A stretch of 64,000 bases of DNA from Escherichia coli (lineage in GTDB: Bacteria > Pseudomonadota > Gammaproteobacteria > Enterobacterales > Enterobacteriaceae), in the NCBI RefSeq assembly GCF_016903815.1, contig NZ_CP069973.1. The stretch is one strand, 5' to 3'. Shown piece by piece: positions 24,396 through 24,587 of this stretch (the stretch's first letter is position 1; each line of letters begins with the position of its first letter). The translations under genes were made by a program, and so were the position numbers. The notes below the pieces were generated by a model, which was given only the letters and a program-made list of their open reading frames with translations, was not told the DNA's origin and searched no databases.

Positions 24396-24485
24396 GTCGT
24401 TACCCTTTTTCAGGCAATAGTTGGCCCTGACCGAAACGGCCAATTTTGTTTTTGTCGTTATTTACATCTCGGTTTCGCATTCATT

Positions 24486-24575
24486 GCCTGATGCGACGCT
24501 GCCGCGTCTTATCAGGACTACAAACCCGAACCGTAGGTCGGATAAGGCGTTCACGCCGCATCCGACAAACAGCTC
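24486..24575. repeat. REP units between cpsB and cpsG
   Basis: gcctgatgcgacgctgccgcgtcttatcagg and a related palindromic unit. Confidence 0.7.
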
Positions 24576-24587
24576 CTGATGCGACGT

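Follow-up and report, generated by a model that had tools for sequence, protein, structure and literature searches.

The cpsB-cpsG spacer and its position in the operon

The window analysed was a stretch of 64 000 nucleotides (nt) of Escherichia coli DNA. It comes from the his side of the chromosome and carries the colanic acid (cps/wca) genes as well as an O-antigen cluster of type O102; the spacer treated here lies between the colanic acid genes cpsB and cpsG. The query region was 100% identical to that of strain 7/2. According to the list of open reading frames (ORFs) and the annotation of strain 7/2, the cps genes are all on the minus strand. The genes and the spacer are as follows.

24588..26024, minus strand: cpsB (manC), mannose-1-phosphate guanylyltransferase; stop codon TAA at 24590..24588 (ORF list and annotation of the 100%-identical strain 7/2)
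24396..24587, minus strand: cpsB-cpsG intercistronic spacer, 192 nt (sequence and gene ends)
23025..24395, minus strand: cpsG (manB), phosphomannomutase; start codon ATG at 24395..24393 (ORF list and strain 7/2 annotation; homologues are named CpsG by the sources)

In the transcript, the part upstream of the spacer runs from wza to cpsB, and cpsG is followed by wcaJ and then wzxC. On the minus-strand mRNA the spacer consists of two unrelated and already catalogued elements in series, a unit of repetitive extragenic palindromic (REP) sequences and then the algC RNA motif (Rfam RF02929). Both identifications carry very high confidence. Neither element is new: REPs in this spacer have been in print since 2011, and the Rfam family of the hairpin dates from 2017. 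Their strand, boundaries, covariation, distribution and polymorphism were determined in this work. An earlier note, made from the letters of the window, had placed REP palindromes and a GC-rich hairpin in this spacer, inside the colanic acid operon, and this placement was confirmed.

The algC motif in front of cpsG

The whole window was scanned against Rfam, and the leaders of cpsG homologues were then compared. Four features were delimited in the cpsG leader.

24400..24449, minus strand: algC RNA motif (RF02929), cpsG leader (cmscan, 78.2 bits against a gathering score of 33.8, E = 1e-15, model positions 1-52 of 52)
24429..24441, minus strand: P1 hairpin (Rfam consensus structure; covariation)
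24421..24443, minus strand: outer hairpin UUGGCC...GGCCAA with an 11-nt loop, the one seen by the earlier reader (minimum free energy (MFE) structure in E. coli, ViennaRNA)
24400..24428, minus strand: near-invariant 3' half of the motif, AGGGCCAACUAUUGCCUGAAAAAGGGUAA (leader comparison, 15 sequences from 11 genera)

The match to RF02929 was full-length and not truncated. It ends 4 nt before the cpsG ATG, on the same strand, contains the Shine-Dalgarno (SD) sequence and stands directly 5' of a phosphomannomutase gene (algC/manB/cpsG). The family came out of a screen for 224 candidate RNAs (Weinberg et al. 2017, PMC5737381). In its model match, its position 5' of a phosphomannomutase gene, its single covarying hairpin and its conserved 3' half, the copy described here is an ordinary member. 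No experimentally shown function of the family was found in a literature search. The GC-rich hairpin was indeed present as described (the plus strand reads ggccctgaccgaaacggcc at 24423..24441, then aattttgtttttgtcgtt). It had been described as a separate hairpin and is part of this known motif.

Two stems can be drawn through the hairpin. The outer one pairs UUGGCC (24443..24438) with GGCCAA (24426..24421). The Rfam consensus pairs the 5' arm not with GGCCAA but with the nearer CGGUC (24433..24429), which gives P1: G24441-C24429, G24440-U24430, C24439-G24431, C24438-G24432 and G24437-C24433, with a loop at 24436..24434. The 5' arm is common to both, so the outer hairpin and P1 are mutually exclusive. 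Leaders were collected by an exact-pattern scan of one genome per species and by look-ups of CpsG homologues, and the two stems were compared on a 13-sequence alignment with 500 shuffles and slid controls. For P1, 96.9% of the cells were paired, three of the five pairs had changed on both sides and none of the 500 shuffles reached the score (slid controls, 15-55% paired). For the outer stem, 92% of the cells were paired, no compensatory change was seen and 388 of the 500 shuffles reached the score, as expected of shuffled columns. The outer stem was also broken in Silvania, Phytobacter and the E. asburiae group. At least six P1 stem sequences were found in 18 leaders from 11 genera (GGCCG/CGGUC, GGCCA/UGGUC, GCCUG/CGGGC, GGCUC/GAGUC, CUCCG/CGGAG and CUGCAG/CUGCGG). 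The conserved stem is thus the inner P1 (GGCCG/CGGUC here) and not the GGCC...GGCC stem that is thermodynamically favoured in E. coli and that the earlier note had put forward. In an independent methods preprint, P1 was likewise the only stem of the Rfam seed that covaries, and the 3' half was called unusually conserved.

The hairpin had also been called strong. It folded at -8.4 kcal/mol, which is unremarkable against shuffles (z = -1.95). As the ViennaRNA MFE structure, the outer hairpin had -8.9 kcal/mol against -5.8 kcal/mol for P1. The significance of the hairpin lies in its conservation (Rfam E = 1e-15) and not in its energy. With regard to a riboswitch, whose conserved architecture would have several helices, one short covarying helix was seen in the motif.

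The T-rich run that follows the hairpin on the plus strand had given it the look of a terminator, and an intrinsic terminator or attenuator at this place was therefore considered. The plus strand does have AATTTTGTTTTTG after the hairpin. The operon, however, is on the minus strand, and on the mRNA an A-run precedes the hairpin and no U-run comes after it. A consensus scan over 22800..24800 gave no terminator-like site at the hairpin (24400..24460) on either strand and no sigma-70-like promoter, and no plus-strand gene lies near. The G-U pair of P1 was kept in 10 of the 13 sequences and would be an A-C mismatch on the opposite strand, which settles the minus strand as the one that acts as RNA. 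The outer stem has an 11-nt loop and lacks covariation. A terminator at this hairpin is extremely improbable. As a site for a DNA-binding protein, the palindrome TTGGCC-N11-GGCCAA was rejected, its outer arms not being conserved in Silvania, Phytobacter, Yokenella, C. freundii and the E. asburiae group.

After P1, the leaders share the pattern A[G/A]GG[C/U][C/U][A/G]ACU[G/A]UUGCCUGAA, of which ACU[G/A]UUGCCUGAA was invariant in the 15 sequences from 11 genera. This part contains the SD sequence AAGGGU (24407..24402) and an anti-SD-like UUGCCU (24417..24412). Two pairings of the anti-SD are possible. In the first, a putative helix P2, GGGC (24427..24424) pairs with GCCU (24415..24412); all changes in its 5' strand were wobble-compatible and 14 of 15 sequences were fully compatible. 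In the second, UUGCCU pairs with RGGUAA, with 6 bp in 11 of 15 sequences. Folding was predicted for six species, and in each of them the MFE structure pairs the SD run. Leaving the SD free costs 1.8-4.8 kcal/mol; the best such fold consists of P1 and P2 in five species, and in Enterobacter cloacae of another structure, at a cost of 2.4 kcal/mol.

The spacing from SD to ATG is conserved, which points to the ATG at 24395 as the start of cpsG. An N-terminal extension of CpsG from a TTG at 24443 was rejected: the frame is open in E. coli, but the phase from motif to ATG is lost in Enterobacter. Several CpsG entries in databases have 492-501 amino acids against 456 here; their start codons were probably called too far upstream, so that the algC motif is translated as well. 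A leader-peptide ORF was rejected as well. The Enterobacter motif is crossed by an ORF that ends at the UGA of GCCUGAA, but the frame lacks a start codon in E. coli, Salmonella, C. freundii and the E. asburiae group. A direct repeat of the region was also noted (24387..24402 and 24445..24460, 58 nt apart): the mRNA sequence UAACGACA…AAAAUUGGCC, upstream of and into P1, resembles UAACGACAUGAAAAAAUUAACC at the start of cpsG. It could be due to chance or to an old partial duplication of the cpsG 5' end.

The motif was confirmed with Rfam in Escherichia, Enterobacter, Citrobacter, Salmonella, Scandinavium, Kosakonia, Yokenella, Silvania and Phytobacter, each time before a colanic-acid-type cpsG that is followed by wcaJ. 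Mangrovibacter has a matching layout that scores below the Rfam threshold. Among the sampled genera, the motif occurred only where the cpsB-cpsG gap is long (74-193 nt) and wcaJ comes after cpsG. It was not found before the manB of O-antigen clusters in E. coli O157, Kluyvera, Pseudescherichia and Xenorhabdus, where manC and manB are 3-19 nt apart. The rfbK gene of O9 matched the query in the coding part alone. In this sample the motif is therefore tied to the colanic-acid-type cpsB-cpsG spacer, which adds to the description of RF02929, as do the SD and the anti-SD-like UUGCCU in its 3' half. In 4695 of 5426 complete E. coli genomes the 5' end of cpsG was found together with the motif, and in nearly all of them the identity was at least 95%. 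The other 731 (about 13%) had no full match to the 5' end of a colanic-type cpsG (464 matched at 60-80% identity and 261 not at all); four members of the 60-80% class among the matches listed were rfbK genes of the O9 family. We take it that genomes without a colanic-type cpsG may be strains in which the cps locus was replaced by a group 1 capsule cluster.

The REP unit and its copy number

REPs were called by blastn against Y and Z2 consensus sequences; these sequences were cross-checked only through the naRNA4 model and the genome-wide copy number. The names Y and Z2 follow the nomenclature of palindromic units of Gilson, Bachellier and Hofnung. From the cpsB stop codon towards cpsG, the following features were found.

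24575..24586, no strand assigned: truncated Z2 REP head of 12 nt, CCTGATGCGACG, adjoining the cpsB stop codon (blastn against the Z2 consensus; direct repeat D1/D2)
24533..24564, minus strand: Y-type REP, GTCGGATGCGGCGTGAACGCCTTATCCGACCTAC on the mRNA strand (blastn, 97% over 32 nt, E = 2e-11; inverted repeat I1; partial naRNA4 match of 37.6 bits)
24486..24521, plus strand: Z2-type REP (blastn, 94% over 36 nt, E = 2e-11; inverted repeat I5; hairpin in the MFE structure)
24487..24574, no strand assigned: 88-nt amplifiable unit made of Z2, linker, Y and linker (12-nt direct repeats 88 nt apart; spacer lengths of the strains)
24482..24491, minus strand: UCAGGCAAUG, Z2 head and flank (inverted repeat I7; 10-bp complement of CUAUUGCCUGA, 24419..24410, in the algC motif)
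24450..24485, minus strand: A/U-rich single-stranded linker from the REPs to the algC motif (sequence; unpaired in the MFE structure)

The REP palindromes reported earlier were recovered, and the block was extended to 24586. The 12-mer CCTGATGCGACG occurs twice in the spacer, 88 nt apart, and its copy at 24575..24586 is the upstream bound of the 88-nt unit. In the predicted fold a helix starts at the cpsB stop codon, where the truncated Z2 head pairs with an arm of Y. The elements are imperfect palindromes of about 35 nt, extragenic, transcribed and multicopy, as REPs and bacterial interspersed mosaic elements (BIMEs) are: per E. coli genome, the 401-nt query matched at a median of 11 places, most of them by the REPs only. 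The Y and Z2 REPs are oppositely oriented and form a BIME-2-like pair, and the unit is amplified in tandem in variable number. The copy resembles known REP/BIME-2 elements in its 32-36-nt palindromes, alternating orientation, short linkers, extragenic site, copy number and tandem amplification. Unlike typical BIME-2 arrays, it is one unit plus a truncated head, inside an operon and beside a stop codon.

The naRNA4 matches in the spacer scored 37.6, 31.7 and 28.9 bits, all below the gathering score of 59.5. REP clusters had also been claimed for two other spacers of the operon. Four REPs, arranged Z2-Y-Z2-Y, lie in the wzxC/wcaK spacer (19802..19987), and the Y-Z2 pair at 19860..19930 on the plus strand exceeds the naRNA4 gathering score with 79.7 bits. 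In the wzc/wcaA spacer there is one Y REP (34936..34969) and no cluster. By the Rfam cut-off, the wzxC/wcaK pair is thus a member of naRNA4 and the cpsB/cpsG pair (31.7-37.6 bits) is not.

Across the strains compared, the spacer took the forms below.

Spacer of 104 nt: no unit, only the 12-nt head left (K-12 MG1655)
Spacer of 192 nt: one unit (this window and O157:H7)
Spacer of 280 nt: two units (strain PSJ-07)
Spacer of 368 nt: three units (strains Z1323PEC0011 and P377)
Spacer of 128 nt: a partial deletion
Spacer of 101 nt: a REP-free allele with its own small hairpin

To sample the alleles, 60 records were taken systematically from a ranking of all complete E. coli genomes, and 51 of them had the spacer. 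One unit was present in 32 of the 51 spacers, none in nine, two units in two and three or more in two; five were REP-free and one was partial. Tandem Repeats Finder gave a period of 88 and 3.1 copies in Z1323PEC0011. In the comparison with K-12 that the earlier note had proposed, the whole 88-nt unit was gone and the algC motif was retained. The unit is missing from K-12 and hence dispensable.

The REP-free 101-nt allele (L003, strain 25-07233, 297..397; also H77-H81) was present in about 10% of the sampled genomes. From the cpsB stop codon (TAG, not TAA) to GTAAATAACGAC its sequence is unrelated, with a hairpin of its own, CCGGAttaattcTCCGG. On either side, its CpsB and CpsG proteins do not differ from those of a strain that has the K-12-type spacer. 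The region of its stop codon, GGGUGUAGUAGUUG, is complementary to CAACUAUUGCCU of the motif (p = 0.04).

Iguchi et al. (2011, PMC3158064) reported REPs in wcaK-wzxC, cpsG-cpsB and wcaA-wzc, and found that strains differ at cpsG-cpsB by indels that contain REPs. These are exactly the three spacers treated here, but that study deals with recombination break-points flanking O-antigen clusters and not with function at the RNA level, and it mentions neither the algC motif nor the 88-nt unit series.

In every genus examined, either an own REP type or a stable hairpin lies directly 3' of the cpsB stop codon. It is followed by an A/U-rich linker at the equivalent place, then by P1, the invariant segment and the SD sequence. 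In the spacers L008-L040, the cpsB stop codon is followed by GCCCGGTGGCGCTGCGCTTACCGGGC in Enterobacter, by two REPs in C. freundii and in Scandinavium and by hairpins in Salmonella and Silvania. The position after the cpsB stop codon is thus occupied recurrently and independently across genera.

Possible roles of the two elements and other features of the window

The explanation that we favour, and consider probable, combines a REP unit acting as attenuator and stabiliser with an algC motif that controls the start of cpsG translation. The mechanism inferred for it is tentative. By analogy with other REPs, the cpsB-cpsG REPs are likely to be an attenuator and a barrier against 3' decay, and an optional one, since K-12 and the REP-free allele are without the unit. 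Their stem-loops would block 3'-to-5' exonucleolytic decay of the upstream wza...cpsB mRNA and would cause a partial, Rho-assisted attenuation of transcription into cpsG-wcaJ-wzxC. The two effects combined would raise the ratio of upstream to downstream expression. These roles, which the earlier note had already suggested, are those shown experimentally for other REPs. REP325 is both a partly Rho-dependent terminator and a stabiliser of upstream mRNA, and REPs between tandem genes go on average with upstream-biased expression (bioRxiv 10.64898/2026.03.23.713779). REP325/naRNA4 (Rfam RF02564, yjdMN operon) likewise consists of Y-Z2 REPs between two tandem genes of one operon; its attenuation and stabilisation are experimental, whereas the cps REPs are known here from their sequence. 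The nucleoid role behind the name naRNA4 has been questioned (bioRxiv 10.64898/2026.03.23.713779). According to a rule cited in PMC12306157, the upstream gene is translated less when a REP follows its stop codon by fewer than 16 nt, and the predicted helix of truncated Z2 and Y at the cpsB stop codon is within this range.

Across a gap of 192 nt, cpsG cannot be coupled directly to cpsB by termination and reinitiation. Ribosomes must therefore start on it independently, and the algC motif would set or switch the rate of this initiation. UUGCCU paired with GGGC in P2 would leave the SD sequence free, and paired with GGGUAA it would occlude it. The predicted folds suggest that the motif limits or switches ribosome loading on cpsG.

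Several points weigh against this combined explanation. Statements on function at the cpsB-cpsG locus rest on analogy or on folding prediction. REP effects are reported to be strongly context-dependent, and the effect on half-life is not uniform (bioRxiv 10.64898/2026.03.23.713779). The free variation from zero to three units, together with the REP-free allele, argues that any effect of the REPs is modest or neutral. The 66-nt leader does not fold unusually well (z = -1.04; 31 of 200 shuffles fold as well). The anti-SD pairing is reduced to 3-4 bp in Enterobacter, Citrobacter sp. MGH106 and Mangrovibacter. The P2 and anti-SD helices have 4-6 bp and an invariant 3' strand, so that covariation cannot test them. 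The extreme conservation of ACUGUUGCCUGAA fits a trans-acting factor at least as well as a self-contained switch.

Such a factor, an Hfq-dependent small RNA (sRNA) or an RNA-binding protein, would have the invariant 3' half (ACUGUUGCCUGAA and SD) as its site, with P1 as a mere anchor and no anti-SD switch. This would account for a sequence that is invariant across 11 genera, and called unusually conserved in the independent preprint, while P1 and the neighbouring positions vary. It would also fit the short and weak internal helices and the A-rich tracts that flank the motif (AcAAAa upstream, GAAAAA before the SD), as in ARN sites of Hfq. However, no partner was found, the only complementary sequence in the window being the REP-derived UCAGGCAAUG (the sRNA repertoire was not scanned), and the E. 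coli leader has no GGA motif of the CsrA type. A trans-acting regulator at this site was judged unlikely. The order of a stem-loop or REP, an A/U-rich single strand and P1, kept in all genera examined, would also suit a processing site. RNase E would cut the A/U-rich linker, the REPs would guard the upstream 3' end and P1 the 5' end of cpsG-wcaJ..., and the segments would differ in stability. The motif does open with a conserved A-rich stretch, but a P1 of 4-6 bp is a small guard and the invariant 3' half of the motif would be left unexplained. Processing of this kind is distinctly improbable.

For the REP half only, the unit may be a neutral or selfish passenger, the spacer being a tolerated site of BIME landing and amplification with no selected effect on cps. 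The free copy-number variation in the 51-spacer sample, the 12-nt remnant kept in K-12 and the context dependence cited above are what such a passenger would give. Unrelated REP types at the equivalent place in different genera are also expected if long gaps collect local REPs. REP-free alleles and genera nevertheless have a stable hairpin after the cpsB stop codon (CCGGA...TCCGG in L003; Salmonella and Silvania), which suggests that a stem-loop is wanted there, and intergenic REPs of tandem genes are on average linked to upstream-biased expression. A pure passenger is thus possible, if somewhat unlikely, and an attenuating and stabilising REP unit is preferred.

A direct link between the two elements was considered for Escherichia. 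The duplex of UCAGGCAAUG with CUAUUGCCUGA had an energy of -15.1 kcal/mol. Against shuffles it was significant in Escherichia (p about 0.003-0.01) and in none of the other genera. As a conserved feature, long-range pairing of the upstream spacer with the motif was rejected, being significant in Escherichia alone. In the predicted fold of the K-12 type (no unit), the truncated REP head is free and captures the anti-SD, and the SD is unpaired at 0.78. In the folds predicted for one or two units, UCAGGCAAUG is locked in the Z2 hairpin, the anti-SD pairs with the SD and the SD is unpaired at about 0.25. It is conceivable, though very doubtful, that the REP content of the spacer thereby sets the folding of the algC leader and cpsG translation in Escherichia. 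If it did, variation in REP copy number would tune a conserved translational leader heritably, and SD, anti-SD and anti-anti-SD would make the algC motif a true switch.

With both elements catalogued, the value left at this locus is the mechanism of the algC motif, in which the inner stem is conserved and the 3' half holds the ribosome-binding site and a possible anti-SD. In the genera sampled, the motif keeps to the colanic-acid cpsB-cpsG gap, and the tightly coupled manC-manB pairs of O-antigen clusters lack it. The natural alleles with zero to three units are a ready-made series on whether REPs tune enzyme ratios inside a capsule operon.

The Rfam scan of the window also gave the following RNA elements.

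54709..54857, 55044..55186 and 55372..55514, plus strand: SIB RNA (RF00113), three tandem copies, 139-150 bits
857..980, minus strand: STnc490 Hfq-binding sRNA (RF01405), 146 bits
38926..38964, minus strand: JUMPstart (RF01707) upstream of wza, leader of the cps operon
13263..13301, minus strand: JUMPstart (RF01707) upstream of the O-antigen (rfb) genes

The next spacer of the operon, cpsG/wcaJ (22891..23024, minus strand), has 134 nt here, whereas K-12 and O157:H7 have 54 nt. The difference is due to an insert, GC-rich and palindromic, with CCCCCTCGCCCCTTTGGGAGAGGGCCGGGGTGAGGGGCGAGG, where K-12 and O157 have just a small hairpin, CCCTTACCCCattgCGGGTAAGGGG. This insert resembles boxC-type repeats.

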